Assembly (NCBI GenBank): GCA_949290645.1
Contig: CASESG010000004.1
Coordinates: 10,821-74,820, forward strand
Source: an uncultured Bacillota bacterium
GTDB taxonomy: Bacteria > Bacillota_I > Bacilli_A > RFN20 > CAG-288
Reading direction: 5' to 3'
DNA: 64,000 nt
Below are positions 7,453 through 50,592 of this stretch, in pieces (position 1 is the first letter of the stretch; each line of letters starts with the position of its first letter). A program made the translations under genes and the position numbers. The notes under the pieces are model-generated. The model ran no database searches and was not told the DNA's origin. It saw only the letters and a list, made by a program, of their open reading frames with translations.

Positions 7453-7705
7453 CCTGGCTTTTGATAAAGAAGTTGTTTCATTGACAAATAATTTACATGC
7501 TTTGCTATTTCATATTGCCTTCTAATGGAAAATTAGTTTTGATTTTTGATATCTCCTATCTTTTCTCTTCCCCTTGCTCTCCCTCCTTTTCCTTCCGATT
7601 CCTATCGCACGTTCTCGAGCGTTTCCCATTTCTTCAAACATCCTTCTGGAAAGCGTTTCCGTATTTACTCGACGATGAAAAATCGATACAATATCTTCGC
7701 GTTTT

Positions 7706-26834: not shown

Positions 26835-27088
26835 GTTTTGGACGGGAAGAAGGCATCCTGATCCAAATCAGGCAAAGCATTGCCGAAAATCAAAGCTGCC
26901 ATTCTGGAAAAATGTGATTTTGCAGCCAAACTATCCGGGAAAATGTGATGGATGGATAATTCGCTTCATAAAAGGACCAATGCATATAATTCACGAATAA
27001 CACAAGACATTTCTTCGACTTCCGCATCCATTCTTCTCCTCGTATGACCGGCCTTGGTTTTTGCACCAGCATGGACTATAATACCCAA

Positions 27089-27163
27089 GAAGGGACCGGC
27101 CGAGGCTCTGCCTCACGATGACTTAACTGGGTGAGTTAGAATCATCATTCTGGTCCTTTTTTT
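27089..27163 (+). ncRNA. Candidate antisense (antitoxin-like) sRNA overlapping the 3' end of the small toxin-like ORF
   Basis: Promoter TTGGTT (27054-27059) -17 nt- TATAAT (27077-27082). A closing stem AAGGGACC/GGTCCTTT and an inner GATGA/TCATC hairpin are followed by a run of 7 T (27157-27163). It is antisense to codons 24-36 of the ORF at 27123..27233. Confidence 0.3.
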
Positions 27164-27233
27164 CTGTCTTCTTGTCGATGTATTTGAGGATGAGGTAGAA
27201 AAGCAGAAGTCCGAGAACATCAAACGCTCCCAT
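27123..27233 (-). CDS. 36-aa hydrophobic peptide, type-I-toxin-like (Fst/Ldr-style architecture)
   Basis: Strong RBS AAAGGAGGTGAGTC before the ATG. The product MGAFDVLGLLLFYLILKYIDKKTEKKDQNDDSNSPS has one TM helix plus a charged tail. Not in the ORF track because it is under 60 aa. Confidence 0.45.
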   Translation of the reverse strand: MGAFDVLGLLLFYLILKYIDKKTEKKDQNDDSNSPS

Positions 27234-30108: not shown

Positions 30109-32835
30109 TCAGGCGATGACTGTCGTCGCTCCCTTTCTCCAGACGCCCAAGGTCGAATCGAACTGCAAAGAAGCAATCGGAGCATAGAGGCTACGATTCC
30201 CGGAAGACCAATCCTGGGCAGGAGTTTGTGAAATCGTCCTTGTGAAGTAATCCCACGTCACCGTTTGCGTCTGAGTGCCAAACGATGAACCCGAAATGCT
30301 TCCGGTATTGTCATCTCCCGTATAGGTCCACCCGGAATCGCTCGTCCCCTCGTCGATATGCTTTGTCAAGGAAATGGTGCCGATTCTCGAATAGGAGGAA
30401 ATGCCGGAAAAACGAGTGATGTCCGCCGGGTAATACCCCGTCGTCCCCGAAGTGTAGGAGACAGAGGAAAACAGGCTCATGGAGGAAATCGTCACAGATT
30501 GATTCGTCAAATAGTTCGTTGTCGTGTTTTCCGTCACAGAATATTCTGTCGGCATTGGACTGAAATCTCCCCAAGGGCCATGAACAATACCAAATGAAGT
30601 ACGATTCCTTGAAGCCGTGCCTTTCTCTCCGTCTCCCACCCATGTCTCCATGCTTGAGCGCACCGAAATGGTATAGGTCGTCGAATCGTTCGAGACCGGA
30701 TAGAAGTTACGTGTTGAAGAACTGTATTGGTTGTCATAGACATAGGCCGCATATGCATCGAACGTCGCCGTCGGATCAGGCACTTCGACCTGCTGGCCCC
30801 GATAGTAGGCATAATACTGGGTCGCTGTCCGGGCAAGGTGATCCTCCGACACATAGGATTCGATGGGAGTCATCGTCCCACTCATCGGACTTCCCGAGTC
30901 TGTCACATAGATATATTGGTTTTGGCCGACGGAATACACGCCTGTCCGATAGTCGTATTCCGTCTCTCCATTCGTCAAGGTGGAATCGATGTCTTCCGAG
31001 CGAAAGACGTGATAGGGGGAATCGGAAGATGAATCGTCGTTGACCATCAGGGGAACAATGAGGTACTCGTGAATCGATGATTCGAGCATGTCCTTGATGC
31101 TTCCCCCTAAAAGCGTACCGATAGCGGATCCAAGATCGATGTCTCCTCCCATATAAGAAAAGGGAATGGCGCGGGAAACGAAGGTGTCGAAAGAGGATGC
31201 GTTTCCGTTCAAATAGTCTTTTGTCGATTCGGAAAGATTCATCATTCCGGCAAGGGGATGCCCCTCCCCATCAGCCTGAATGGAACCGCCGATGGTGACG
31301 CGCGGATTCTTCTGCACGTTTCTTTCCGTTTCCTCAAGCTCATATTTCTGGTAGCGGGATCGGGTAAAATTGTAATTCGCCTTGCTATAGCCATAAAACG
31401 CCGTTGATGAATCGACTGGAAGTTCGGAAAGAACGATCAGCCCTCCTTTTGAAGTCCCTTTCTCTATGTCCACTTCGACATCTCCGAATGTAGGAATGAC
31501 GACGTTGCTGTCGAAATCGCGGCTCGTCAATCGCACCAGACTCCCTTCTTCCGTCATGACCGTGGCCCCTGGACTCAAAAGCAAAGTCAACGGAAGGGTC
31601 AAGTCGCAGTCCTTTCGAACCCTGAAATGATAGTAAGAAGGAATGTAGAAAGAAAACTGCGACATTTCAATATTGGCAGTCATCTCAAGTCCGGAAAAGG
31701 TCAAGGTTGTATTCAATGTCATGCTTTCGACAGTGACGGAACCATAAAAATCGTATTCCACGCGATGATTCGCTTCATAGGAATTGACAGCATCTGTCGA
31801 ATCCGAAAGGTTGTTATAACCATCCCGGACAATCACAGAATCCGCGGACGTCAGATTGAAGAGGGATCCCGATGGCCCTAACACGTTCATCTGCGTCTTC
31901 GTCATCATGGACTGCGCATAAAGCATCGTCGCCCCAGTCAGAACCGCTCCATGACGAAACCGGATCGAACAGCTGAGGTAGGGCATCGAATAGGTCGAAA
32001 AGGGCATCGTGGAGAAGGCCGCCCTTCCGACCGTCGGTCCGCCGCCACCATAGTCTTCGACGACAAATCCCGCGTAGATGGTTCCGGAGCAGTCGACTTC
32101 TCCAATGTGCTGCCCGTCGATCTTGCTCGTGGCGGAGTCGAGAAGATATCCGTAGGCATTCATCGTCGCTCCCGACTGAATCGTCAGCGTATGTCCGTTG
32201 AGATCGAGGGCGACGAAGCTCCCTTCGATGACACAGCCCGCGTTTCCGCCACCCGAACTCGATCCGACAAGGGCTCCGATGCTGAGAATGCCGCCGCTGG
32301 TCACAGTGACATCCCCCGCCAGTCGAATCGTATAGAGCCGGGCGGGACGAGAATCGTAATTCTGATCGTAATAATAGTTGATGGGACGGGCCGAATTCGT
32401 CGTCGCCCCTCCATCGGCCGCCGTGGTGGCAAAGCCTCCGTCTTCGGTCGGGCTCTTTCCCAGGAAGTCGTCGATTCCATAGTCGATGTCGTTTTGCCGA
32501 TGGGTGAAGTGAACAGGAGAGGAAATCTCCAGGACTTCCCCGGGCCTCCCCAAGGAAATCACCCGATTGTCTTCGTCGTATTGTGAATCGTTGTAGACAC
32601 CCGAATAGTCTCCCGACGCCGCATTCGTCTTGCTGTCATAGATGTAGCTTGGATTCGTTCCCGTCTTGTTTTCCAAGAAAGTCGTCAAGTCGCTTGGCAC
32701 AAATTCGACATAGTCCTCGTTGCTTGGAGCCTGTGCTGTCCCGTTGATGATCCACGTCGAGAAACCGACGGCAATCAAGAAGAACGTCAGAAAGGAAAGC
32801 AGGAAGGCCGAACGGATCTTCCGTGTCCTCTTCAT
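30109..32835 (-). CDS. Large secreted/anchored protein (908 aa) with the operon-specific N-terminal motif (AVGFSTWIING); paralog of 34328..37000
   Basis: Start was re-picked at ATG 32835 (MKRTRKIRSAFLLSFLTFFLIAVGFSTWII), an ATGA overlap with the upstream gene. Shares blocks with the 890-aa protein: LDLNGH.LTI.S, YG.L.DS, DYGGGG, PF..YSMPYL.C..R, and a C-terminal FDS.L..W. Confidence 0.85.
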   Translation of the reverse strand: MKRTRKIRSAFLLSFLTFFLIAVGFSTWIINGTAQAPSNEDYVEFVPSDLTTFLENKTGTNPSYIYDSKTNAASGDYSGVYNDSQYDEDNRVISLGRPGEVLEISSPVHFTHRQNDIDYGIDDFLGKSPTEDGGFATTAADGGATTNSARPINYYYDQNYDSRPARLYTIRLAGDVTVTSGGILSIGALVGSSSGGGNAGCVIEGSFVALDLNGHTLTIQSGATMNAYGYLLDSATSKIDGQHIGEVDCSGTIYAGFVVEDYGGGGPTVGRAAFSTMPFSTYSMPYLSCSIRFRHGAVLTGATMLYAQSMMTKTQMNVLGPSGSLFNLTSADSVIVRDGYNNLSDSTDAVNSYEANHRVEYDFYGSVTVESMTLNTTLTFSGLEMTANIEMSQFSFYIPSYYHFRVRKDCDLTLPLTLLLSPGATVMTEEGSLVRLTSRDFDSNVVIPTFGDVEVDIEKGTSKGGLIVLSELPVDSSTAFYGYSKANYNFTRSRYQKYELEETERNVQKNPRVTIGGSIQADGEGHPLAGMMNLSESTKDYLNGNASSFDTFVSRAIPFSYMGGDIDLGSAIGTLLGGSIKDMLESSIHEYLIVPLMVNDDSSSDSPYHVFRSEDIDSTLTNGETEYDYRTGVYSVGQNQYIYVTDSGSPMSGTMTPIESYVSEDHLARTATQYYAYYRGQQVEVPDPTATFDAYAAYVYDNQYSSSTRNFYPVSNDSTTYTISVRSSMETWVGDGEKGTASRNRTSFGIVHGPWGDFSPMPTEYSVTENTTTNYLTNQSVTISSMSLFSSVSYTSGTTGYYPADITRFSGISSYSRIGTISLTKHIDEGTSDSGWTYTGDDNTGSISGSSFGTQTQTVTWDYFTRTISQTPAQDWSSGNRSLYAPIASLQFDSTLGVWRKGATTVIA

Positions 32836-33505
32836 GCTGCCACCTCCTGTGCCATCATCGTCATCGAGAAGGAAAAGGTGCCATCCGTCAGAAAGGAGAA
32901 GAGCGTCTCGTCGAAATGCTGGAAGGTATAACGGACGAAATACTCCCCCTCCGAGGCAGGGACGGTCCAATCCGTCGAGATGTCGATGGAATACCGGCCG
33001 TCTTCTGCTGTCGCCTCGAAGGCAAAGGAGGGAATCTCCGCCATGGCGACGGACGATTGGTCGACAGAGGAATAGACCCAAACGACAGGGGAGAGATACG
33101 ATTGGTTTTCATTCACCTGGAGAGAGAGTTCGTATCGCCCGTCCTCACCCAGAGCAATCATCCGCGGAGAGGACGTCTGATAGTTCAGCCTTCCCTGAAG
33201 CACGTAATCGTAACCGTCCAACGTTCGATCGATCGAAAGCGGAATGTCCAGATGTCCGACGCTTCCGTTCAGAAAACCGGCAATCGAAAAGCGGACAGGC
33301 TGGACGTCGCCGATCGTCAGGCAATCTCGGATGTCCAGGACACCATCCGCTTCGACAGGAACGGTCGCACTCTGCGGACGGCTTTCCCCGTCTTGAATGA
33401 CCCAGCTGGAAAAGCCGACGGCAAAAAGGGTCAAAACACTAAGAACCTGCACCCCCCCCCCGCAAGGAAGAGCCGATGGCGTCGAACCCAGCGATTCAGT
33501 TTCAT
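32832..33505 (-). CDS. Small secreted protein with the GFSSWVI motif; 5' end interrupted by a poly-G(10) tract (candidate phase-variable gene, OFF frame in this sequence)
   Basis: ATG 33505 lies 4 nt after the lgt stop and encodes MKLNRWVRRHRLFLAGGG. After the G10 run it falls out of frame with VQVLSVLTLFAVGFSSWVIQDG... A run of 11 or 8 G would restore the frame. The track ORF uses a GTG inside the run (33452). Confidence 0.7.
33452..33461. repeat. Homopolymeric C10 (G10 on the coding strand) inside the 5' coding region
   Basis: Read directly: a cccccccccc g at 33451-33462. Confidence 0.95.
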
Positions 33506-33509
33506 GTTG

Positions 33510-34325
33510 CTATGATACTCCATTGTCCCCTGATTGCGAAACGCAATTTTCTTCCGCCGACTGCGTGAGCGTCTCTTCAAACTCCCTCAGAATCCTCTGC
33601 CCGCAATCCTTCCTCCTTCGATTCTGAACGTGAAGGACCACGATCCAGACGGTCGCGCCGACGATCTGGCCCAAGGAAAGAAGGTGACTGACCGAAAGGG
33701 GACCGACCACATTGGTTCGATGGCGAAGGAATTCCAGACCAAAGCGAAGAATGCTATAACCCAGGAACGTAGACAGGAAGGTCTCTCCCGGAAGAAGCCT
33801 CTTCTTCAGGAAAAGGAAGAAGATCAGGGCGAAGAGAAGCAGGTCCAATCCCGCCTCCAAGGGCTGGACCGGAAACAGTCCGTCCTGCACACCGTTGGTG
33901 ATGCCCCAGCCGACCGGAATCCCGTAGCAGCACCCCGTGCACATGCATCCGATGCGATAGAAGGCCAGTTCAATCAAGATACCCGGGGCAAGGAAATCCA
34001 TCAGGCGATAGAAACTCGTCTTCATGACCAAGGAAAGCAGGAAGAGGAAAATCGGCGTGAAGTAGAAGACCCCATAGAGAGAATATCCGCCCGACCAAGA
34101 GATAGGTTCGCCAAAGGCGGAGGGATTCTCCAGGTAGAACATGATCTTTGCCCCAAAGATCTCCAGGATGATCATCATCCCGCCAAGGAGCAAGGCCGTA
34201 TACCATCGATATCCGTACCATTTGTGGACAGCAACGTATTCCGCAAGGCAGAGGACGATGCCGATGCCCCAGAAGAAGACGGAGGAAGAGATGGAAAAGG
34301 AACCAAAGGAAATCTCCGGCAGCAT
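33510..34325 (-). CDS. lgt: Prolipoprotein diacylglyceryl transferase (Lgt family)
   Basis: Polytopic membrane protein with Lgt-like blocks: YSLYGVFYF, FYRIGCMCTGCCYGIP, FPVQPLEAGLDLLLF, ILRFGLEFLR. ATG 34325 lies 2 nt after the TAG of the upstream gene. Confidence 0.7.
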   Translation of the reverse strand: MLPEISFGSFSISSSVFFWGIGIVLCLAEYVAVHKWYGYRWYTALLLGGMMIILEIFGAKIMFYLENPSAFGEPISWSGGYSLYGVFYFTPIFLFLLSLVMKTSFYRLMDFLAPGILIELAFYRIGCMCTGCCYGIPVGWGITNGVQDGLFPVQPLEAGLDLLLFALIFFLFLKKRLLPGETFLSTFLGYSILRFGLEFLRHRTNVVGPLSVSHLLSLGQIVGATVWIVVLHVQNRRRKDCGQRILREFEETLTQSAEENCVSQSGDNGVS

Positions 34326-34327
34326 CC

Positions 34328-37000
34328 CTATGCCCTCACCCAACGATTCAAGGAGGAATCAAATTTGACTGCTGTCTTCTGCGTTGTGTCGGTAAGCCTG
34401 GAGCAATCCGCCTCTCCTGTCGAGTCCGTAGATGAAGAAAACTTGCAATACATCCCTGCAAAGAAGATATATTGTTCCCCATTTTCATCTTGATATACTG
34501 GCAACGCAGAATCTTTCGTAACTTTCAGCAAAGAGCAGGAGCCATCTTCCCTTGGTGCAGAAGAATAGGATTTAGTCGATTCTATGACGTAATGAGAGCC
34601 GTTGAACAACATCTCTCCTGTTCGAGAATCAAAAGTACCAACCACGCCATCAGTATCTGTCGCATTCTGATAATAGCAAAGTCCATTAGAAACGAGAGGG
34701 AGGCTGTATCCTTTGCAAAAATATGTTTTATAAGGAAAACCAGTGACACTGCCTAGCATCGTCGAAAAATAATAGGTCGAGATAGATGTTGTGCCTAAAC
34801 TGTCCGAGACGAGTTCCGTGAACGGATTCTCTCGCTCCTCATAATCGACATAGGTCAATGCAGATAAATCGTCAGAATAATACGCAACACGATTAAAGTT
34901 GATGTTCCCGGCAAGAATATATGGAGAAGAATTGCTGCCCGCATTTCCCTGTCGAATCGCCAACGTTCCATAGATTGAGATTCTTGGAGAAGAAAAGTAT
35001 TTTGCAAAAGCTTCCGAACGCCGATACTGACGTCCTTGACTTCCTTCCCCTCCATCCATGTAATCGTTATTAACGAATTTCTCGTATTGTGAATCGTAAT
35101 AATAGAAATTATTTCCTAATGCGAGAACTTGCGCACTACGTTGGCCATTGTAAGAAAGAGAAACGACACTATTTTCATCGGCAAAGAAGCTTGATCCCGG
35201 CATGAATTTGATTCTCTGTGAGATGACGATTGTCGAAGACCGGAGCATGATGTCAAAGAATCCAGAAATCGGGAAAATGAATTCGCTGGTGTCAATTGGC
35301 ACGGAAATGGTGAATTTCAACGCATTCATATTACATTGGACATTGTTGAGCTGGATTTCCATCCTTTTTGAAAGCACCGCTTGCCGATCTGCGTCTGTCA
35401 TTTTTGGGTCTTCTTCCATAGCCTTATGAGAATATCCGTAAATGTCAACGGACGATTCGGACTGAGGATTAGAAATGGAGAAAAGAAAAGAATCTCCCCC
35501 TTCGGGGCCAATGAAATTCAGGACAATTTCCGTCTGACTTGAGCCCATGTAGTTTATATGTGCAAGAGCAAGAAACTGGCCAAAAGAGTTATTGCTGTCA
35601 GTTTCTAATCTTACGTGGCATCGAAGATAAGGCAACGAATAAACTTCAAAAGGAAAGCATTTATCACTTCCGGAAACCATTCCAGAAGTCGCTCCTCCGC
35701 CACGATAATCCTGGATCGTCGCCAACGTTTGAATCGATCCACCCTTGACAAAAATTGTTCCTGTCCCTTTTGAATCTTTGATCAAGCCATAGGAGAGCAG
35801 GCTTCCTGTTGAATTGATTGTGATATCGTGTCCATTCAAGTCGAGGCAAACATATTCATTCGTAATGAGGCCATTTGCTGCTTGTGAATTCGCTACGCCA
35901 TAGTTTGATCCAATGACCAACGTTCCATCAATAACCATATCTTCCTGCAGAACAACCTTGTACTGCAGTTCGTGAGCGTCATTCTCTGGCTCGAAATTAC
36001 TGAATGATGTCGTTGTAGCATCCTTCTTTATGCTTCCGTCATTCAGTCCAAAGTTGATGGTGACACCCTCGTGAATCGTTGTTGCATGCGTCAAGAAGAC
36101 CGCCTTGTCCCCTTCAAAGTAAGACAAGTCATTCTTGACGTTTTCGCTCCCTTGCGCCGCTTGGGCGTTAAAGGTCTTTACACCGGTCTGAGTACTTGTA
36201 ATCGTATCGGAGAGATTGTTTTTATAGTCAGACAAATCGTTGTCACTATTTAGGACAAGATAATATGAAGAATCGCTTTCGATGGTCGTATCTTCAGAGA
36301 GGAAACTATCGCTCGGCAAAGGATTATCTTCCGCATCATAAACCGTTTCCTTGAACCCGACAAAAGTGTATCCGGAGGAAACGTCGCTGAGATGGTCCAT
36401 GATCATGCTTCTCGCATCGGAAAGGGGATTCCCCAAGTTGAGATTTGTGGAGAACTTGATGTCCGTTTCATATGAATAATGATACTTATTTTCTTCTATC
36501 TGTTGTTTCGAAATCTTATATGTTCCGGAATACGTATCACCACAGACCCCCTCTGTAAATGAAATGCTCTCGGTAACATTGACAATAATATAGTAGCCAG
36601 ACCAAGTATCTATCCCGAAATACTGATAAGGACCTTTAGTTAAATCTCCAACTGTTTTTCCAGTCAAAGTCTGCATCAAACTTTGAAAGTTCTCATATGA
36701 AGACGAGCTGTCCGTGGAATATTCTGTTCCGAGCTCGTAGTTGGTTCCATTGACCACACCCAGCGCTTCCTCTGAATGGGTGATGACTTCCATTCCATCG
36801 CAAATCTGATAGCGGAAATCGACCTTGACCTTCTCCTTGTCCTCCGTCTCTCCGCTCGTTGCCGTGGAATCGGAGGTGTCGACGACCGGATCGTCGACGA
36901 CGAAGGTCGCGTATCCGACCGCGACGAAGACGCCGAGCAGAAGGGAGAAGACGGTCAGGGTCTTCCAAAGAGGAATCTTTTTCGTTTTCTTGTTTTTCAT
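34328..37000 (-). CDS. Large secreted/anchored protein (890 aa) with N-terminal motif (AVGYATFVVD); paralog of 30109..32835; AT-rich core
   Basis: GAGGAGG RBS. N-terminus MKNKKTKKIPLWKTLTVFSLLLGVFVAVGYATFVV. For shared blocks see the paralog. Codon usage from about 34440 to 36720 is A/T-ending, unlike its neighbours. Confidence 0.85.
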   Translation of the reverse strand: MKNKKTKKIPLWKTLTVFSLLLGVFVAVGYATFVVDDPVVDTSDSTATSGETEDKEKVKVDFRYQICDGMEVITHSEEALGVVNGTNYELGTEYSTDSSSSYENFQSLMQTLTGKTVGDLTKGPYQYFGIDTWSGYYIIVNVTESISFTEGVCGDTYSGTYKISKQQIEENKYHYSYETDIKFSTNLNLGNPLSDARSMIMDHLSDVSSGYTFVGFKETVYDAEDNPLPSDSFLSEDTTIESDSSYYLVLNSDNDLSDYKNNLSDTITSTQTGVKTFNAQAAQGSENVKNDLSYFEGDKAVFLTHATTIHEGVTINFGLNDGSIKKDATTTSFSNFEPENDAHELQYKVVLQEDMVIDGTLVIGSNYGVANSQAANGLITNEYVCLDLNGHDITINSTGSLLSYGLIKDSKGTGTIFVKGGSIQTLATIQDYRGGGATSGMVSGSDKCFPFEVYSLPYLRCHVRLETDSNNSFGQFLALAHINYMGSSQTEIVLNFIGPEGGDSFLFSISNPQSESSVDIYGYSHKAMEEDPKMTDADRQAVLSKRMEIQLNNVQCNMNALKFTISVPIDTSEFIFPISGFFDIMLRSSTIVISQRIKFMPGSSFFADENSVVSLSYNGQRSAQVLALGNNFYYYDSQYEKFVNNDYMDGGEGSQGRQYRRSEAFAKYFSSPRISIYGTLAIRQGNAGSNSSPYILAGNINFNRVAYYSDDLSALTYVDYEERENPFTELVSDSLGTTSISTYYFSTMLGSVTGFPYKTYFCKGYSLPLVSNGLCYYQNATDTDGVVGTFDSRTGEMLFNGSHYVIESTKSYSSAPREDGSCSLLKVTKDSALPVYQDENGEQYIFFAGMYCKFSSSTDSTGEADCSRLTDTTQKTAVKFDSSLNRWVRA

Positions 37001-37011
37001 GGACTACCTCC

Positions 37012-37686
37012 TCATTCACGGCTTGTCGCCAATCCGAAGGTGATCTTGATTGTTGGAAAGGCCATATCGTCCGATTCCAGCAGATCCTTGTTGACGTTGG
37101 ATATCGTGAAGCGAAAGACCAGGGGGACCTGGTAGACTCCGTTTCGCGGATAGCTCGAATCGAGGGATGCCAGGGAGCAGAGGGACATGGCCTTTCGGCT
37201 TTCGACAGGAAAGTAGAACTGCGTCGTGTCGGCATTGTTCTCTTGGCAGATGGTTTCGGAGCGAGTGGCAGGAAAATCGTAATGATCGTAGTTTTCGGGA
37301 TAGACCATCAGTTCTTCGACGATGTTATTGAGGGTGCTCGCATAGCCCTGGTATTGGAACACCACCCGAAGGTCGGCGTCCTCGAAGGCCGAATGGTCCT
37401 TGTCCAGGTCGAGCGTCGCCTTGAGGGAGAAAAAGACGTCGCCCACGTATTCCGACGTCACGGAAGAAGTGTTATCTTCAAACGTCACGTACTGGAACGC
37501 CTCGAAGGAGTCCGGGACGATCTCGAAGCCGACGTCTTCCAGTCCGACGGTCGTGGTCACGACGTCGTCGGCCGAGACGGGAATCTCGACCCGTTCGCTC
37601 TCGCCGATGACCCATGTGGAAAAGCCCAGGCCAGCGATGCTGGCCGTACAAAGGCCGATGACGGTTGCCATCTTCCACTTCTTCAC
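37012..37686 (-). CDS. Small secreted protein (224 aa) with the GFSTWVI motif
   Basis: A GTG start at 37686 forms a GTGA overlap with the upstream stop. N-terminus (M)KKWKMATVIGLCTASIAGLGFSTWVIGE. The track ORF is over-extended to 38109. Confidence 0.8.
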   Translation of the reverse strand: MKKWKMATVIGLCTASIAGLGFSTWVIGESERVEIPVSADDVVTTTVGLEDVGFEIVPDSFEAFQYVTFEDNTSSVTSEYVGDVFFSLKATLDLDKDHSAFEDADLRVVFQYQGYASTLNNIVEELMVYPENYDHYDFPATRSETICQENNADTTQFYFPVESRKAMSLCSLASLDSSYPRNGVYQVPLVFRFTISNVNKDLLESDDMAFPTIKITFGLATSRE

Positions 37687-38841: not shown

Positions 38842-39939
38842 TCAGGCAACATCATACCACGCATAGAGCTGGAGATCCCTCAGGACCGGAGTCGTGTCGT
38901 CGAAGCGACCGGCGTTGGGATCGTAGGTCGGAGAGGTGTACCAGCCCAGGAAGAGGTCGTCTCCTCGCTCGGGGATTCCGATCTGTTCGCCGAGGATCCG
39001 CCGGGAAAGCCTTTCGCCTTCCTGGACGAAGTAGGAGACGCTTTCCGCGCCCGAAGGCAGGCTTCCGCCCTGGGCGTCGAAGGTCACGGAGTAGTAGTCG
39101 GGCTCTTCCTCCGCGGCATAGCCGTCGATGGTCAGGAGGAAGGTCCACCCCGCCTCCTCCTTGGCATAGAAGTCTCCGGACTGGATGTCGAGGTAGAAGT
39201 CCCCCACCTCGCCTTGGGAGGGCGAAGGCTCTCCCATTCCGCGCCACCATTCCTGGGCGCGGCCGTAGGGGAGTGGAAGGTCGAACGTGCTTCCGTCGCT
39301 GAGGGTGAAGGTATAGACGCAGGAAGTGGAAGTCACTTCCGTGATCTCGACATGGTCGATCGTGACGCCGTCCCTGCCGTCGGGAAGGAAGAAGACCGTA
39401 TCCGGAGAGCCGTCCTGGTAGTGCAGGACGACCCTCGTTCCGCCTTCCTCTTCCGTGACCTCGAAGGAGGAGATGAGGTGCGTCGCATCCACTCCGTCCT
39501 CGCCCTTGGGAAGGAGGAGGGAGGGACTTTGCGTGCCGTCGGAATACTCGAAGACGAGATTCGTTCCGCCCGTCTCCTCGTCCGTGGAGACGACCAGTCC
39601 CGTAACCAGCCGTCCTTCCTCGCCTTGGGCGTTGGGGACGCGGAAGACGACGTCGTCCCTTCCCGTGAGGGAGATCGTGATCACGATCTCCTCTCCCTCG
39701 ACCTGGGCCGTCACGTCCTCGATCGTCGCCCCGTCCGCTCCAGAAGCGGCGCCGGGAAGGCTCAGGACGAAGTCGGGACGGACGCCGTCCTGGAAGGAGA
39801 GGACGACCTGCTGGTTCCCCTGCCCGTCGACTGTGGTCGACACGTCCTCGATCAGCGCCCCCTGACTCGACCCGAAGAGGAGCGAGCAGGAGGAGAGAAG
39901 GAGGGCCAGAGACGGCAGGAAAAGAATTCCCTTCTTCAT
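38842..39939 (-). CDS. Lipoprotein, paralog of 37683..38825 (G-x-DG repeats plus Flg_new domain)
   Basis: MKKGILFLPSLALLLSSC gives a lipobox. Repeats include GADGATIEDV...ITISL and GEDGVDATHL. The C-terminus is YSVTFDAQGGSL...FLGWYTSP...LQLYAWYD. ATGA overlap with the upstream gene. Confidence 0.8.
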   Translation of the reverse strand: MKKGILFLPSLALLLSSCSLLFGSSQGALIEDVSTTVDGQGNQQVVLSFQDGVRPDFVLSLPGAASGADGATIEDVTAQVEGEEIVITISLTGRDDVVFRVPNAQGEEGRLVTGLVVSTDEETGGTNLVFEYSDGTQSPSLLLPKGEDGVDATHLISSFEVTEEEGGTRVVLHYQDGSPDTVFFLPDGRDGVTIDHVEITEVTSTSCVYTFTLSDGSTFDLPLPYGRAQEWWRGMGEPSPSQGEVGDFYLDIQSGDFYAKEEAGWTFLLTIDGYAAEEEPDYYSVTFDAQGGSLPSGAESVSYFVQEGERLSRRILGEQIGIPERGDDLFLGWYTSPTYDPNAGRFDDTTPVLRDLQLYAWYDVA

Positions 39940-43960: not shown

Positions 43961-44784
43961 TCCTTCTCCTCCTCCACGTCGAACTGGCGGAAGATCTCCT
44001 TGAGCCTTCTTCTTTCCATCGGCTGCTCGCGGAAGTCGATCGAGCGCTTGATGATGCCGCTGTCGAGGATTCCGACCCGGTCGCAGATCTTGGAGACGAA
44101 GTCGATGTTGTGGGAGGTCAGGAAGATCGTCCTTCCGTTGGCCTTGAGATCCTTCATCAGGTTGAAGAGCATCTCGTTGACGACAAGGTCGAGACCGACC
44201 GTCGGCTCGTCCAGGATCCAGATCCTCGGATTGTGGATCAGGGAGGCGATGAGGCAGATCTTCTGCTTCATGCCGTGGGAATACTCGCGAATTCTCTTCT
44301 TCAGGTCCTGGTCGTTGAAGCGAAGGCGGGTGGCCAGAAGATGATAGTTGGTGACGAACTGGTTCTGCTTGACCCCATAGGCACCGGCGACGAAGGAGAG
44401 ATATTCCTTTCCGGTCATGACCTCGTAGGCCGTCGGTTCGCTGGCGACATAGCCAAAGCATCTCTTGGCTTCCTCAGGCGAAGCAAGGACATCGTTTCCG
44501 AAGATCTCGATCGTCCCTTCCTGGAACGACTTGAGACCGACCATGCAGTCGATGGTGGTCGACTTTCCGATGCCGTTTCTTCCGATCAAGCCGAAAGCCT
44601 CACCCTCCAGGACAGAGATGTCGACTCCCCGGAGCACCTCAAAGGAGCCATAGGACTTCTTCAAGCCATGGATCTGGATAGCCGTCTCCTTCTCCTTCTC
44701 GAGCGGAAGTCCTTCTTCCTTCCTGGAGATCGACTCTTCGGTAACGGGCCTTGTGCCCTTGAGCATCTTTGTCAGTGGATTCAT
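43957..44784 (-). CDS. ABC transporter ATP-binding protein
   Basis: Walker A GRNGIGKST, signature YSHGMKQK, Walker B IWILDEPTVGLD. Start was re-picked at ATG 44784 (ATGA overlap). Confidence 0.9.
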   Translation of the reverse strand: MNPLTKMLKGTRPVTEESISRKEEGLPLEKEKETAIQIHGLKKSYGSFEVLRGVDISVLEGEAFGLIGRNGIGKSTTIDCMVGLKSFQEGTIEIFGNDVLASPEEAKRCFGYVASEPTAYEVMTGKEYLSFVAGAYGVKQNQFVTNYHLLATRLRFNDQDLKKRIREYSHGMKQKICLIASLIHNPRIWILDEPTVGLDLVVNEMLFNLMKDLKANGRTIFLTSHNIDFVSKICDRVGILDSGIIKRSIDFREQPMERRRLKEIFRQFDVEEEKE

Positions 44785-46163
44785 CGAGACCTCCAAAGGC
44801 CCTTGAGCCAGACCAGGACCTTTCCGCGATTCTCGATCACGGAGAGGAAGGCGTGGCAGCTCGGGCAATAGTATCCGTCCTCCCTCTTGCTCAGATGGGC
44901 GTTGTGGCAGACAGGACAGCTGTAGTCGAAGGAATGACCCTCGTCGAACAAGAGGAACAAGGAGGCGAGGTAGTTTCGCATCCTTTCCTTGGATGCCCTC
45001 TCACCCGGAACAAGGACAAGGACATGGTCCTGTCTCTTCTCCTCGAGAAGGGACATCGTCGCCAAGGTGACATCGTCGACCTTCCGCTCCCGGACTTCCC
45101 GGAAGAGGGAAGAGACTTCTTCCTCTTTCACCAAGGGAAGGACCTTGAGCAGGCGGTCGGAGGAGGAGAGAGTGGCGTTGTTCTCCCTATCGAGAAGGAC
45201 AGATCGCAAAAGATAGCCGTCCTTGCGCTCGTAGAGGGAGAGGGTGAGATTCTTTCTCCTTGCGAAGAGACACTGGAAGCGGACTTCTCCCTCCTCGACA
45301 CGATAGCCGTAGGGAGTCAGCTCAAAGCCCTCTTCCGCGAGCTCCGAGAGAAGAGAGAGCAGGACGAAGGAGCGATATCCTTTCTCCTCTTTCTTCCCCT
45401 CCTCGTTTCTCTTTCTCAGCTCGTCGACATAGAAGCGGTAGCAATAGGAATAGAGAGGATGGTGAATCAGGACGTTCGTCGCCTGGATCTGTCCCTTGAT
45501 GGGGAACAGGACCAGGTCGTGATAGAACTTGCTGTTCTTCAGGCGCTTGAGATAGGTCAAGGCCTGATGGAGCAAGAGGTCGACATCCTCTTCCTTCTCG
45601 ATGACAGAGCGGTCGTCGAGATAGGGAACCTTGAGGTCGAAGCGGGAGAGCAGGTCCGTCGGCTCATAGCTGAGCCTCTTGTCCTTCCCGTAGTCGAGAA
45701 GAGAGCCTTCCCTTCTTCCAAAGAGATGGATCAAGTCGTGGATCTCACGGTCGACCATGTCGATCAGCATGCAGAGGAAGCGGTTCTCGTAGGTGTTGTC
45801 GACATCGATCTTCTCCGTCGAGTGGACCAGCTCCGGAACCATCGACCCGTCCTTCTTGCGAGACCAGAAGGAAGGCTCGCGGACCGTCTTCCGGAAATCC
45901 TCTTCCGATAGAGGACCCGAGACCTCGACCCTCTTGACTTCCTCTTCCCGGGAAGTGACGATGGCCGGATTCATGACGATGGAGAGGATGCGAGTCAATA
46001 AGGCGACCAGTTTCCTCGTCCAGGAGAGAAGCTTCTTGGGATCTTCCTTTCGATAGAGGTCGACCTTGCCCGTCTTTTCAAGGGAAAGGAGATGGAAGAA
46101 GTTCTTCTCCCCTTCCATCGAGACCAGCTGACGGTGGAGTTCGGACAAAAGCTGTTCTCTCAC
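44781..46163 (-). CDS. McrC/DUF2357-like partner protein with a C-terminal Zn-ribbon and no evident PD-(D/E)xK nuclease motif
   Basis: Lies directly downstream of the McrB-like gene (GTG 46163 is 1 nt after its TAA). The TYENRFL motif is recalled from DUF2357/McrC-like proteins. The C-terminus is CPVCHN...CPSCH. No D...(D/E)xK block was seen by eye. Confidence 0.45.
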   Translation of the reverse strand: MREQLLSELHRQLVSMEGEKNFFHLLSLEKTGKVDLYRKEDPKKLLSWTRKLVALLTRILSIVMNPAIVTSREEEVKRVEVSGPLSEEDFRKTVREPSFWSRKKDGSMVPELVHSTEKIDVDNTYENRFLCMLIDMVDREIHDLIHLFGRREGSLLDYGKDKRLSYEPTDLLSRFDLKVPYLDDRSVIEKEEDVDLLLHQALTYLKRLKNSKFYHDLVLFPIKGQIQATNVLIHHPLYSYCYRFYVDELRKRNEEGKKEEKGYRSFVLLSLLSELAEEGFELTPYGYRVEEGEVRFQCLFARRKNLTLSLYERKDGYLLRSVLLDRENNATLSSSDRLLKVLPLVKEEEVSSLFREVRERKVDDVTLATMSLLEEKRQDHVLVLVPGERASKERMRNYLASLFLLFDEGHSFDYSCPVCHNAHLSKREDGYYCPSCHAFLSVIENRGKVLVWLKGLWRSR

Positions 46164-46164
46164 C

Positions 46165-47979
46165 TTAGAGCCTCTTGATGAGCTTGCCGACGTTGTGACG
46201 CGTCAGCGGGAACTTCTCCTTTCCGTACGTCTCGTCGATCAGATCCAGAAGGTCGAGAAGACCCTGGCGGACATAATCCTCGAAACGGCCCTCGAGCTTG
46301 TAGAGGACCTTGCGGGCAAAGAGGAAGTCAAGCGCGTCTTCCTTTGTTCCTCCGCAGCTGACATAGACCGGGACAAGGATCTCGATCTGGTTGAGGACAC
46401 GGTTACCGAAGGTGATGTCGAAGGTGTCCGAGAGGAAGGAGATGAGCTTGGCGAAGCGGGCGAAGTCCTCCTTCGTCAGGCGATTGCTCTCGGTCGAGAG
46501 AGCCTTGGCATAGAGGGCGTTGAGTCCCTTATAGGTCAGATGGATCGGAGCGACCTCTCCCTCGACCTCGAAAGGTTCGTTGCGGTCGTCGAAGGAAATC
46601 GTGATGGCACGGTCATAGACCTTGTCGGTGATGGTGTAGGTCGAGTCGTCCTTGTTGGCCGTTCCGATGAACCAGGTGTTCTCCGGGATCTTCAGGACGC
46701 CGTTCTCGAGATGGCTGGGCCCCTCGAATTCATAGGGAACCTGAAGGATGCGGAGCTTCCACTTGTCGATCGGGTATTCCATGATGGAGAGGAAGTCGGC
46801 GAAGTAGTATTCGACACGGGAGATGTTGACCTCGTCCAGGACCATGATGTTGATGTCGTTGGGGCGATAGGTCATCTGATACAGACGCTTGAGGAAGTCC
46901 GTCTCGTTGTACTTGCGGGAGAAGTCGTTGAAGAAGCCGAGCAGGGAAGTGCGGTCTCTCCAGGAAGCCTGGACCGGCTCGAAGAAAGATTCCTCTCCGA
47001 TGTATTCGGAGAAGTAACGGGCCAAGGAAGACTTACCCGTTCCCGAGAGGCCTTCCAGGATCAACAGACGGCTGGCCGCCATGCCCGAGAGGAAGGCGCG
47101 GATCGTGTCGATGGAGAAGTAGAGACCCTCGTTCTTCGCCAAGTAGCGACGGAAGTCCTCCGAGATCTCCCTGAGGGAGAGAGTCGTCTCGCTCTGGTTG
47201 AGCGGAGTCCTTGTCTCCTCGACCTCGTCGATCGTGCAAAGGCCAGGGAAGACATATTCCTTGGAGCCAAGCTCCGCTTCCGTCTGCTCGTCCTTCTCCT
47301 CCCCGTCCAGAGAGTTCGTCAGGTTGGAAAGGGCCGAGGAGGAAGGCCCCAAGGCCGAAGCCAGGGACAATCCATCGGCCGAGGCCAGAGTCGGTTCCTG
47401 CTTGTTATCCTGCTCATCGTCGATATCTTCCGTATCCTCGCCCTTGTTGAAGCGGAAGGGCTTGTCGATGTTGCGGAAATTGACGACCATCATGCAGAAG
47501 AAGAGAATCGGCAAGGCCAGGACGACGAAGAGCAGAGTGCCGATCAAGAGAGACTCGCCGAAGAAGAGGAAGCTGTTTCCGATCGCTCCCTCGCCCCTTC
47601 CGATCTGAGCCAGGAAGGAAAGGCCCAGCCAGAGAACGGCGCCTCCGAAGAAGGTCAAGGAGTAGATCAGGATCCACTTGGGAGTGAACAGCTTCTTTTC
47701 ATAAAACATGGCCAGGCGCATCTCGTAGATCAAGGCGCCGGCACAAAGGAATGCGTACACGCAGAACAGTCCCAAGACCATCCAGCCCTCGAAGCTGACC
47801 GATACCGAAGGAAGCTTCAGCATGGAAAACAGCACCTTCCGGAGCGGGCTGTTTTCGCTGATCAGGGCATTTCCCGTGTCGGCGAAGAATCCCGAGCCAG
47901 CCACGAACAACAGATAGAAGAACAGCAACGACAGGAAGATGTAGTTCTTCCTTGTAAAATGAGTCTTTCGTTTCTTCAT
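46165..47979 (-). CDS. Membrane-anchored McrB-family AAA+ (AAA_5) NTPase
   Basis: The N-terminal 170 aa or so contain 4 TM helices, followed by an acidic linker. The NTPase core reads LEGLSGTGKSS (P-loop), VLDEVNISRVEYYFADFLS (Walker B / McrB signature), WFIGTANKDDST, DKVYDRA. GGGAGG RBS; ATGA overlap with the sipW stop. Confidence 0.75.
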   Translation of the reverse strand: MKKRKTHFTRKNYIFLSLLFFYLLFVAGSGFFADTGNALISENSPLRKVLFSMLKLPSVSVSFEGWMVLGLFCVYAFLCAGALIYEMRLAMFYEKKLFTPKWILIYSLTFFGGAVLWLGLSFLAQIGRGEGAIGNSFLFFGESLLIGTLLFVVLALPILFFCMMVVNFRNIDKPFRFNKGEDTEDIDDEQDNKQEPTLASADGLSLASALGPSSSALSNLTNSLDGEEKDEQTEAELGSKEYVFPGLCTIDEVEETRTPLNQSETTLSLREISEDFRRYLAKNEGLYFSIDTIRAFLSGMAASRLLILEGLSGTGKSSLARYFSEYIGEESFFEPVQASWRDRTSLLGFFNDFSRKYNETDFLKRLYQMTYRPNDINIMVLDEVNISRVEYYFADFLSIMEYPIDKWKLRILQVPYEFEGPSHLENGVLKIPENTWFIGTANKDDSTYTITDKVYDRAITISFDDRNEPFEVEGEVAPIHLTYKGLNALYAKALSTESNRLTKEDFARFAKLISFLSDTFDITFGNRVLNQIEILVPVYVSCGGTKEDALDFLFARKVLYKLEGRFEDYVRQGLLDLLDLIDETYGKEKFPLTRHNVGKLIKRL

Positions 47980-48941
47980 TTCTTCTCTTCCTCCCTTTCT
48001 CCGTCATCCGTCCCTTCTCTCTTCCCGTCTTCTTCTTTCTCGCCCTTCTCTCCCGTCAGGGGGAGGAGGGCGTACGTCTTGTCCCGATAGGTCAGTTCCT
48101 CCTGGAACCGGACCGTGACCTTCTCCCGGCTCTCCTCGTCCTTCGCATCGAAGGGGAGCTCCGAAAGCAGGTATTCCTTCCGCTGTTCCAAGGCCTGTTC
48201 GTACTTCGAGGAGAAGCGATCGAACATCACGAAGCAATAGAGGATGGAGACGATCGTGATGATTCCGGCATTGGACTGCAGGAAGACGATCAAGGATCCG
48301 ACGCCCTGGATGCGGAAGCCGTTGTAGCGCCCCAGGATGTCGTCATAGGAGAGCAGGCCTTCGTAGGTCAGTCCCGTGTCCGACGCCGCATTGGCGTCTC
48401 CGCGGGTGACGTAGCCTCCTTCGCGGATCTCGACGATGCGGTGGACGATGATCTCTCCTTCCATGCTCCGATAGGCGACGACGTCGTAGAGCTGAACCTC
48501 TTCTGGGCTGCGGTACCGTTCGATGCCGATGATGTCGTAGGCATCGAACTGGTTGTCGAGTCCGTTGTCGAACAGATAGTCGTTCTCGTCGTTCTTCTCC
48601 GACATCGACCCCGTTGCAATGACAAGGGGCGCCTTGTCTCCGAAGAAGAGGACGCCCGAATTGAACCGTGCCACCAACGTCATGACGAAGAAGGCAGCCA
48701 CCAGGGCCAGGACCACGTATCCCGCAATCTTGAAGGACAGGGTCAAGGCCTTCTTCTTCCTGTCGCCGCTCTTCTCCTCGCTGATGGCAATGTCTTCCAG
48801 AAGGGCCGGGTCTTCCCGGCCCGTCAGGACGTTGTCCGTCTCCGAACGATAGTAATGCCGGAAGAGGAACGTGAAGGCCACGCAAAAGCTCAGAAGGCAG
48901 ACAATGGTGACAACCAGAGAAATGATTTCAATGGAAGACAT
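47976..48941 (-). CDS. sipW: Signal peptidase I, archaeal/SipW type (S26B), with extra N-terminal TM region and acidic C-terminal tail
   Basis: Catalytic blocks ATGSMSE (Ser), IVHRIVE (His) and TRGDANAASD match the SipW pattern SGSMEP / HRIV / KGDNN..D. A C-terminal TM is followed by a roughly 90-aa Glu/Lys-rich tail. Confidence 0.75.
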   Translation of the reverse strand: MSSIEIISLVVTIVCLLSFCVAFTFLFRHYYRSETDNVLTGREDPALLEDIAISEEKSGDRKKKALTLSFKIAGYVVLALVAAFFVMTLVARFNSGVLFFGDKAPLVIATGSMSEKNDENDYLFDNGLDNQFDAYDIIGIERYRSPEEVQLYDVVAYRSMEGEIIVHRIVEIREGGYVTRGDANAASDTGLTYEGLLSYDDILGRYNGFRIQGVGSLIVFLQSNAGIITIVSILYCFVMFDRFSSKYEQALEQRKEYLLSELPFDAKDEESREKVTVRFQEELTYRDKTYALLPLTGEKGEKEEDGKREGTDDGEREEEKK

Positions 48942-48978: not shown

Positions 48979-49653
48979 TTATGCCGTGACAGCGGCAATC
49001 GAAATGGAAATCTGATTGTCGTTATAGCCAGCAACCGCGTTGAGCGCATTGACGGCGTCGTCCAACGTCTTCCCCGTCTTTCCGCCGAAGTAGTCTTCCG
49101 GATTGGCCGGATTGTGGTTATTGAAATACGAACCCCAGGCGAACTCGACCGTGACGGTCAAGGTCGTTCCCGAATAGGAAGGAGTGATCGTCGCTTCGCC
49201 GCTCGCCGTTTCGCTGGCAGCCGCAACCGTTCCGTTTGTGACCGTGGCGATAGTGACCGCAGTCCCGGTGGTGCAGGGCGTGACGATGTATTCGGAATTC
49301 CAGCTCGGCCAGGTCGGAGTCATCGTAACCGTGCCGTTTGCCGTGGCGACTGCCGTAACATCGATGGTGAAGGCAAAGGACATGTCTTCCGTAGATGTCT
49401 CACTCCTGATCGCTCCCGCGTCATCCTCGACAGGGCCGAACCTGACGGTTCCATTGCTAGGATCCAACGCCGGCGTTCCCAAAGTGATCGTTCGGCGATC
49501 GTCGACGTTGTCCGCCGTCACGCTGATGTTGTCCAAAGTCTGACTTGTTTCCGTGGAAATCACCCACGAGGCATAGCCGATGCCGGCCGTGGCAACGGCG
49601 GCGCAGGAGATGAGGGAGATGGCAAACAGCTTCTTATGCTTGATCTTCTTCAT
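48979..49653 (-). CDS. Small secreted protein (224 aa) with the GYASWVI motif; paralog of 49675..50445
   Basis: AAAGGAG RBS. N-terminus MKKIKHKKLFAISLISCAAVATAGIGYASWVIS. Shares a C-terminal block (F.WGSYF...NP..Y) with the upstream gene. Confidence 0.85.
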   Translation of the reverse strand: MKKIKHKKLFAISLISCAAVATAGIGYASWVISTETSQTLDNISVTADNVDDRRTITLGTPALDPSNGTVRFGPVEDDAGAIRSETSTEDMSFAFTIDVTAVATANGTVTMTPTWPSWNSEYIVTPCTTGTAVTIATVTNGTVAAASETASGEATITPSYSGTTLTVTVEFAWGSYFNNHNPANPEDYFGGKTGKTLDDAVNALNAVAGYNDNQISISIAAVTA

Positions 49654-49674: not shown

Positions 49675-50445
49675 TTAGGCAACGTTTTCCGTCAAGGTGG
49701 AAGTCAGGATCAGGTCCGCGCTGTCGGAATCCTCGCCCGTGATGGCTTCGTTCATCTTGTTCAGCTCATCGATGACGCCCTGCAGGTGCGCCGCGTTTGC
49801 CGCCGACAGCGTTCCCTTCTGGAACAGGCCGTTGTAATACGTCATCGGGTTCAACGCGTCGAAGTAGCTTCCCCACGTGAAGGTCAAGGTCTGACCGCTC
49901 AGCGTCGCAAGATAGGTCCCGTCCGACTGCTCCTCGAAAGCGTCCTTCGCAATCGTGACGGCCGCCGGAGCCTCCAAATAGGTGAAGCTCTCCTCATCAC
50001 GAATGTTCAGCGTATCGTCCGAGGTCGTGACTTTGCCGGTCGAAGTCTCATCGAAGGCGAAGGTGACAGTCACGCCGCTGTCCAGCAGGCTGTTCACGTA
50101 GTCGGCACCCGCCGTGACCGTGATCGTCGCCGTCACGGTAAGGTCTTCGTTGCGCGAAGATGCGTCTTCTCCGAGGGTCACGACGGAGGACGTGATGCTG
50201 GAATCCGCTCCCGAGGTGTCCTTTCCGCCCAGGAAGAGGGCCTTCTCGGTCAGATTCACGGCCAGGGTCACCGAATCGTTGCGGGCCGTATCGACGGCGA
50301 CGGTCACATCGTCCTTGTCGTTTCGGATCTGATTGCCGATGATCCAGGTTGCGAATCCGGTCGCGATAAGCGTAACGGACGCAAAGCCGATGATGCCACC
50401 AGCAATCCACTTCTTCCTTCCAACGGATTTGTTGTTTTTCGGCAT
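49675..50445 (-). CDS. Small secreted protein (256 aa) with the GFATWII motif; first gene of the operon
   Basis: Start was re-picked at ATG 50445 (AAAGGAGAACACT-ATG). N-terminus MPKNNKSVGRKKWIAGGIIGFASVTLIATGFATWIIGN. Contains TFTWGSYFDALNP. Confidence 0.85.
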   Translation of the reverse strand: MPKNNKSVGRKKWIAGGIIGFASVTLIATGFATWIIGNQIRNDKDDVTVAVDTARNDSVTLAVNLTEKALFLGGKDTSGADSSITSSVVTLGEDASSRNEDLTVTATITVTAGADYVNSLLDSGVTVTFAFDETSTGKVTTSDDTLNIRDEESFTYLEAPAAVTIAKDAFEEQSDGTYLATLSGQTLTFTWGSYFDALNPMTYYNGLFQKGTLSAANAAHLQGVIDELNKMNEAITGEDSDSADLILTSTLTENVA

Positions 50446-50583: not shown

Positions 50584-50592
50584 CCCCCCCCC
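50584..50592. repeat. Homopolymeric C9 (G9 on the operon strand), about 140 nt upstream of the first operon gene
   Basis: Read directly: aga ccccccccc gac at 50581-50595. No ORF crosses it. Confidence 0.95.

Follow-up and report, generated by a model that had tools for sequence, protein, structure and literature searches.

The locus described here lies in a 64,000-nucleotide (nt) stretch of contig CASESG010000004.1, from an uncultured Bacillota bacterium; this whole stretch is referred to as the window, and all coordinates are window positions unless a contig is named. The window contains six genes of one protein family, P1 to P6, all on the minus strand. The reading frame of P5 is broken near its 5' end by a run of guanines, and this poly-G tract, together with the gene that it divides, is the subject of our analysis. 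The features of the P5 locus are the following.

33452-33461, minus strand: poly-G tract, ten G here (G10), at the boundary between the basic N-terminal region (n-region) and the hydrophobic region (h-region) of the P5 leader; encodes Gly-Gly(-Gly).
33462-33505, minus strand: P5 leader segment, from the ATG to the GC of an Ala codon, MKLNRWVRRHRLFLA; basic n-region of a predicted signal or anchor peptide.
33431-33433, minus strand: premature stop codon TGA, met from ATG 33505 in the G10 and G7 states, giving a peptide of 24 amino acids (aa).
32832-33452, minus strand: P5 body of 206 codons, shifted to the -1 frame with respect to the leader, with a hydrophobic core, the motif AVGFSSWVI and a mostly beta (predicted) composition.
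33510-34325, minus strand: lgt paralog (prolipoprotein diacylglyceryl transferase; PF01790, 82.5 bits).
30109-32835, minus strand: P6, family member of 908 aa; its start codon and the stop codon of P5 overlap.

On the coding strand the run is exactly ten G long, seen as C10 on the plus strand at 33452-33461, and it forms part of P5 codons 16-18, behind a leader of 15 codons. ATG 33505 begins 4 nt after the lgt stop codon (TAG, 33512-33510), as an earlier reading of this DNA from its letters alone, hereafter the sequence-only reading, had located it. A second in-frame ATG is available at 33523, and the gene call of the database protein P0004, introduced below, begins at the upstream ATG. After ATG 33505 the DNA reads AAA CTG AAT CGC TGG GTT CGA CGC CAT CGG CTC TTC CTT GCG GGG GGG GGG TGC AGG TTC TTA GTG TTT TGA, so that in the G10 state the product is MKLNRWVRRHRLFLAGGG-CRFLVF-stop, ending at TGA 33433-33431. 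Both the position of the run that puts P5 out of frame and the CRFLVF terminus had been claimed in the sequence-only reading and are borne out when the sequence is read directly.

The frame of the P5 body opens at GTG 33452, whose first base is the last G of the tract, and closes at the stop codon 32834-32832. These remaining codons had been described as lying in the +1 frame, which is loose wording: a ribosome would need a -1 (= +2) shift to reach them, and it is a +1 insertion in the DNA that restores the frame. When tract lengths from 6 to 13 were simulated in silico, a fused open reading frame (ORF) was obtained only at G8 (223 aa) and G11 (224 aa), the two lengths that the earlier reading had predicted to join leader and body. 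At its 3' end, the P5 stop codon overlaps the start codon of P6 (ATGA; GCAGCATGAAG). Because of this overlap P6 is the likely downstream partner of P5, and its expression may depend on P5 translation. The predicted structure of P5 was of too low quality for use, with a predicted local distance difference test score (pLDDT) of 42.

To place this allele among its relatives, the repaired P5 protein was searched against 5.8 billion proteins. A single cluster of ten members was found at an identity of at least 90%. Seven of the ten are 206-aa calls that begin at the internal GTG, as gene callers yield for out-of-frame alleles. Two others, P0004 (229 aa) and P0008 (223 aa; P0 numbers denote database proteins), are in frame and read RRHRLFLAGGVQVLS, the G8 state, with a junction of ...LFLAGGVQVLS. 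The last member, P0001, is a 217-aa variant. P0001 (contig L001, positions 1-1998) carries a P6-like leader on a P5 body and has no G-tract; in this contig a repeat of about 30 nt, coding for the AVGFS.W motif common to P5 and P6, links the end of P5 and the P6 leader to the P5 body. P0001 most probably arose during assembly, by a path that crosses this P5/P6 repeat; a tract-free allele, or a real duplication or gene conversion, is less likely.

At the DNA level, we compared 20 related metagenome contigs (designated by L numbers) from about 16 metagenome samples, covering at least four accession series and several studies. The flanks of the tract are nearly invariant across the 20 contigs, and the tract itself is distributed by length as follows.

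G7, four samples: L003, L004, L006 and L009.
G8, in frame, three samples: L012-L016.
G9, eight samples: L005, L007, L008, L010, L011 and L017-L020.
G10, one sample: L002 and the window.

Tract length is therefore a real polymorphism between strains, provided that these lengths are not produced by sequencing or assembly. Homopolymers are error-prone, and one contig (L026) breaks exactly at a second G-tract described below; on this explanation the true length would be G8 or G11, P5 would be intact, and the variation would be homopolymer noise. The assemblies argue otherwise. A separate Logan assembly of run ERR10610513 (the 51-kb contig L002) also has G10 and is identical to the window over 10.6 kb. 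For three runs assembled by two pipelines each, the European Nucleotide Archive (ENA) and Logan assemblies agree in length in all three cases (L007/L011, G9; L012/L013, G8; L014/L015, G8). Each length is seen repeatedly among samples that share a haplotype, all four samples of one haplotype being G7, and G8 and G9 are also present in unrelated studies (ERZ28613782, SRR7683041). Furthermore, the 10 kb of flanking genes in most strains contain no other frame-breaking insertions or deletions (indels). Since the lengths are consistent within haplotypes, they are real and not random homopolymer error, and we regard an artefact as highly unlikely. The sequence-only reading had put forward a comparison of tract length among assemblies as a check on its proposal; the lengths do differ, and they are reproducible across assemblers and same-haplotype samples. 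An exact-flank scan of metagenomes of the Joint Genome Institute (JGI) gave no match.

The tract also stands out by its pace of change. In the closest strain, L005, the 10,619 nt aligned with the window contain 2 substitutions and only one indel, the tract itself (G9 vs G10). A neighbour-joining tree built from 1,480 flanking bases, whose branches sum to 0.18 substitutions per site, requires the tract to have changed in length five times or more. Among five strains that differ by 0.02-4.3% from the window, the other indels in 10 kb of coding sequence are all multiples of 3, with two exceptions, both in L007. The more distant L018 (9% diverged) has many indels of other lengths within the hypervariable gene P4, where the alignment is unreliable. 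On these comparisons, the tract evolves faster than its surroundings.

Rapid change of this kind could mark a mutational hot spot that has no switching role. In that case a dispensable P5 or P4-P6 module would be lost strain by strain, the G-run would be the first place hit by inactivating indels, and the out-of-frame (OFF) alleles would be young pseudogenes. Consistent with this explanation, OFF alleles are found in 13 of about 16 samples, tract length follows haplotype in clonal groups, and neighbouring family genes are damaged in some strains. In L003 a 133-nt deletion cuts P6 short, and in L007 three deletions of 60, 27 and 8 nt (95 nt in all) do the same. In L007, P4 is also frameshifted by an 8-nt tandem duplication, AACGAAAA, in its own leader-coding region (L007 6447-6480, approximately window 36975-37000), making it a second family gene knocked out at the 5' end by a slippage-type event. 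The state of P5 itself, however, is not that of a decaying gene. Its 206-codon body is open in 20 of 20 contigs, and over 11 alleles the ratio of nonsynonymous to synonymous polymorphism (pN/pS) is 0.18 for the body, compared with 0.15 for lgt; the same DNA gives 1.2-1.5 when read in either wrong frame. The nucleotide diversity (pi) of the body, 0.004-0.005, is the second-lowest among the cluster genes compared. The leader exists as four DNA haplotypes that encode one peptide, MKLNRWVRRHRLFLA, all changes being synonymous. In addition, OFF alleles of three lengths occur throughout the strain tree, none of them with a secondary lesion, and the tract is made of disfavoured codons and is uninterrupted. 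By these measures P5 is maintained under purifying selection on both sides of the tract and is not decaying, and a hot spot without a role in switching appears improbable.

The comparison with related proteins likewise bears on whether leader and body belong together. An exhaustive HMMER scan of 1.8 billion representatives returned only seven relatives. Two of these, the small, intact and distantly homologous proteins P0035 and P0036 of other organisms, have the fused architecture, with a basic n-region, an h-region and the motif GVGF[AS][NS]W, and all five paralogs of P5 in the window combine a basic n-region and an h-region with a GF[AS]xW motif. The fused architecture is thus ancestral, and the two halves of P5 are kept as one gene, separated by the tract alone. 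The sequence-only reading had named two findings that would count against a switch, a simple assembly error and a tract of invariant length; the polymorphism, its reproducibility and the purifying selection on both sides of the tract argue against both.

A further possibility is that P5 is expressed at any tract length, either from GTG 33452 as an internal start, with the G-run as a Shine-Dalgarno-like element, or through ribosomal frameshifting or transcriptional slippage. GTG 33452 does open the 206-codon frame and was used by gene callers in all OFF assemblies, GGGGGGG formally matches an X XXY YYZ slippery heptamer, and RNA polymerase can slip on long homopolymers. A product started at GTG, however, would be without the basic n-region that is found in every family member, including the distant ones, and such a start would leave the leader outside the coding sequence, although all of its changes are synonymous when it is read in its own frame. 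We specifically rejected a programmed -1 ribosomal frameshift: the heptamer is present, but no significant structure follows it (z-score -1.24), and the hairpin starts about 26 nt downstream, where a stimulatory structure would be expected at 5-9 nt. Moreover, the offset is not fixed but varies by strain (-1 for G7 and G10, +1 for G9, none for G8), so that no single recoding event fits all strains. Internal GTG translation is a minor rival, and expression irrespective of tract length is very unlikely overall.

We also asked how exceptional such a run is for this DNA. Composition alone does not exclude a run of G9 or longer: dinucleotide shuffles contain 0.8 G9 matches on average, and 7 of 100 shuffles reach the observed 3. 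The spectrum of G/C run lengths in the window is discontinuous, with 31 runs of 5, 2 of 6 and none of 7-8, followed by one of 9 and one of 10. These two are the only outlier runs in the 64 kb, namely the G10 in P5 and a G9 at 50592-50584, and both lie on the strand that encodes the P1-P6 family. Codon usage over 12,736 codons gives shares of 12.6% for GGG among Gly codons, 23.6% for GCG among Ala codons and 12.7% for GTG among Val codons. Since these codons are disfavoured, the probability of GCG GGG GGG GTG, given the peptide A-G-G-V, is about 0.0005. Within the same codon set, none of the 75 other Gly-Gly dipeptides is written GGGGGG, and the same A-G-G in the paralog P1 is encoded by GCT GGT GGC. 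The tract is present at the same site in 20 of 20 related contigs and is never interrupted. A search of the window for further contingency-type repeats found none.

Taken together, these observations make it likely that P5 is a phase-variable contingency gene with a translational ON/OFF switch operated by slipped-strand mispairing at a homopolymer. This is what the sequence-only reading had proposed, and the strain comparison supports it, with lengths of G7, G8, G9 and G10 and the ON state in 3 of about 16 samples. We envisage that two Gly codons, together with the flanking G of GCG and GTG, make up the G-homopolymer at the n-/h-region boundary, and that slipped-strand mispairing during replication would add or remove G's, presumably in a reversible manner. 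At G8 or G11, ribosomes would read through to the full P5 (ON). At G7, G9 and G10 they would stop after 21-24 codons (OFF), leaving about 600 nt untranslated, and the window, at G10, would represent the OFF state. Because the P6 start overlaps the P5 stop, the OFF state would probably lower P6 expression as well.

Three of five features of a contingency locus are present: the placement of the tract, a length polymorphism that includes ON and OFF states, and an intact gene under purifying selection. As to export, P5 has an N-terminal basic and hydrophobic region and lies in an array with lipoproteins, lgt and a signal peptidase, from which a surface location is predicted. As to switching within a clonal population, the near-identical pair formed by L005 and the window, which differ by one G in the tract, gives an indirect hint only.

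Several points weigh against a contingency switch. OFF states predominate (13 of 16 samples), and P4 and P6 have been irreversibly inactivated in some strains, which would also fit a module that is less needed. In clonal groups the consensus length does not vary (four samples with G7, two with G8), which means either that switching is too slow to scramble the population consensus or that the samples share one population. L005 comes from a MEGAHIT series and may be a re- or co-assembly of overlapping data, which weakens the contrast between the closest pair. The shuffling result given above belongs here as well. In addition, a threshold of G>=9 has been applied in predicting the Neisseria phasome (PMC5953494), and the G7 and G8 tracts of P5 fall below it. 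Finally, the function and location of P5 are themselves predictions.

Contingency loci based on homopolymers are well known from a small number of cultured pathogens, including Neisseria, Campylobacter, Helicobacter, Haemophilus and mycoplasmas. The proposed P5 switch is of the homopolymeric kind already known from Neisseria, in a gene family that is uncharacterised. The pilC tract was reportedly placed in the signal-peptide coding region by Jonsson et al. in 1991. In Neisseria pilC1/pilC2 and lgtA/C/D, intragenic poly-G/C tracts of 9-20 vary in length between strains (PMC5953494). P5 resembles these genes in having a homopolymeric G/C run within the reading frame and a proposed translational ON/OFF outcome; it differs in the shorter tracts (7-10 in P5, up to 11 upstream of P1), in an apparently monoderm, gut-type uncultured host and in belonging to an uncharacterised family. 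The Neisseria opa (P.II) genes carry CTCTT repeats in the leader-peptide coding region and vary by slipped-strand mispairing at about 1e-3 per generation (PMC3960869). Like opa, P5 has a repeat in the signal-peptide coding part of a (predicted) surface-protein gene, the repeat number sets the frame, and there are several paralogs per genome. Unlike P5, opa has a pentameric repeat, belongs to an unrelated family and occurs in a Gram-negative pathogen, in which the rate of about 1e-3 was measured.

To our knowledge, hardly any such loci are on record for uncultured commensals of the gut, in which studies of phase variation have centred on invertible DNA. The P5 case demonstrates that a switch of this kind can be brought to light from public metagenome assemblies by themselves: they reveal which tract lengths occur, that an ON state is among them, and that selection maintains the gene. 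A practical lesson is that gene callers, by annotating OFF alleles as a 206-aa protein from the internal GTG, mask the real architecture. Furthermore, the case flags a predicted, uncharacterised surface system linked to a SipW-type peptidase as being under possible host or phage selection, and this system is a candidate adhesin, fibre or phage-receptor module.

P5 belongs to a minus-strand array that runs from 50445 down to 30109. The remaining family members and the peptidase gene are listed below.

49675-50445, minus strand: P1, 256 aa, first gene of the P1-P2-signal peptidase array, with the family motif.
48979-49653, minus strand: P2, a 224-aa family member.
47976-48941, minus strand: archaeal/SipW-type signal peptidase I (TIGR02228, 54.4 bits; cut-off 51.85).
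37012-37686, minus strand: P3, 224 aa, small partner of P4.
34328-37000, minus strand: P4, 890 aa, a P6 paralog, hypervariable between strains.

The signal peptidase gene directly follows P1 and P2 and lies 15 kb from P5; its product is a candidate processing enzyme for the P1-P6 family. Directly after it, within the array of predicted surface-protein genes, are genes for an McrB-like AAA protein of 604 aa, which has a membrane region at its N-terminus, and then for a 460-aa protein with a C-terminal zinc ribbon (44781-47979, minus strand); the two may serve in defence or as an assembly ATPase. The array continues with an ABC ATPase, a 534-aa protein, an 807-aa protein and two lipoproteins with Flg_new repeats, and it ends with P3, P4, the lgt paralog, the tract-split P5 and P6, in this order. 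The genes recF, gyrB and gyrA are found at 55-61 kb, which places the window on the chromosome, and their order behind an S4-domain gene (S4-domain gene, recF, gyrB, gyrA) points to a chromosome of Bacillota type. A scan of a genome collection with lgt gave only an lgt of 50% identity, on an unrelated contig of 38% GC. A search of the 64-kb window for Rfam families at gathering score gave none. The region at 50-55 kb is low in GC (about 44%) and contains ArsR-like and RhuM-like genes.

What P1 to P6 have in common is a basic n-region, a hydrophobic core and the motif G[FY][AS][ST][WF][VI][IV]. The sequence-only reading had stated that the N-terminus of the fused P5 matches those of its five paralogs; this holds for the n-region, core and motif of the six same-strand genes, but beyond the N-terminus only P4 and P6 are clearly homologous (28% identity, E = 3e-20), and the four small family proteins are 15-22% identical to each other. 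No Pfam or NCBIfam match was found for P1-P6, including searches of the N-termini at E<=10. The AlphaFold model of P1 has a pLDDT of 73, with about 90 in the body, and a search with this model found no fold match in the PDB (best E 0.05, TM-score <= 0.2). At most, P1-P6 can be described as an uncharacterised family of mostly beta proteins that are predicted to be exported or anchored.

The arrangement recalls the Bacillus tapA-sipW-tasA operon, in which an archaeal/SipW-type signal peptidase I is likewise arrayed with small secreted beta-rich proteins, as the P proteins are predicted to be. The P-family signal peptides end in a G-x-[ST]-[ST]-W-like motif, which we take to resemble the GGGTWA of TasA. 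Unlike SipW itself, the peptidase scores 46 bits against the SipW equivalog model, below its cut-off of 190. Membership of P1-P6 in the TasA/camelysin family was considered and rejected, as the proteins match neither this family nor the SipW-cognate signal-peptide model. The idea of a TasA-like jelly-roll fold was dropped, since the P1 model has no TasA-like or other match in the PDB.

Diversity between strains is distributed unevenly along the array, with pi values of 0.06-0.13 for P4, about 0.09 for the lipoprotein at 38842-39939 and 0.004-0.005 for the P5 body (32832-33451). Genes predicted to encode hypervariable surface proteins and conserved-but-switched ones thus adjoin each other. Within P6, there is a hot spot of in-frame indels approximately 1.25-1.37 kb into the gene.

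The second long run of the window lies upstream of P1.

50584-50592, minus strand: poly-G tract of nine G (G9) in intergenic DNA, 147 nt upstream of the P1 ATG.

This tract is also G9 in L023 and L024. In L025, where P1 is 92% identical, it is G11 (9855-9865); the intergenic flanks on both sides are unalignable with the window, and despite this the motif TGT(T)C-Gn-TCT[GT]GA is found at the same distance. A sister lineage, L027 (P1 59% identical), has an interrupted G4AG5 at approximately 7461-7470, and contig L026 starts right after the tract. Promoter scans in two strains placed no convincing sigma-70 promoter around it. By analogy with known systems, the tract probably modulates transcription of P1, P2 and the signal peptidase gene in a length-dependent manner. 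A poly-A homopolymer lies in the promoter of vlp in Mycoplasma hyorhinis. The second tract, with its lengths of G9 and G11, is intergenic, length-variable and upstream of the first gene of the array. In these respects it is similar to the poly-C tract in the promoter of Neisseria opc, which mediates phase variation (PMC3960869). It differs from opc and vlp in that no promoter hexamers could be placed convincingly around it, and its transcriptional role is a suggestion drawn from its position.

The P1 family is widespread in human-gut metagenome assemblies, with one bird-gut locus (L028-L105). At 78 loci of distant P1 relatives (369 kb, mostly human-gut, 23-44% GC), no G/C run longer than 5 was found, which makes the G-tracts an innovation of the present, higher-GC lineage.

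More speculatively, and on balance doubtfully, the two G-tracts could form a two-level contingency system for an undescribed cell-surface apparatus of uncultured gut bacteria. In such a system, the upstream tract would tune transcription of a core consisting of P1, P2 and the SipW-type peptidase, and the intragenic tract would gate P5, a conserved accessory subunit, and through polar effects also P6, its large partner. P4 and one lipoprotein would diversify by sequence instead, and G-tract switches would have evolved only in this higher-GC lineage of a family that is widespread in low-GC human-gut metagenomes.

Two further homopolymers were noted in related contigs. A G8 run in L003 (8325-8332) adjoins an opposite-strand ORF for a 255-aa membrane protein; it lies within an insert of about 1 kb relative to approximately 27074-27175 of the window, which lacks it. 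In L050, a low-GC human-gut relative, an A11 run (2977-2987) is located 24 nt upstream of a P1-like start and may be an A/T-type equivalent of the tract upstream of P1.

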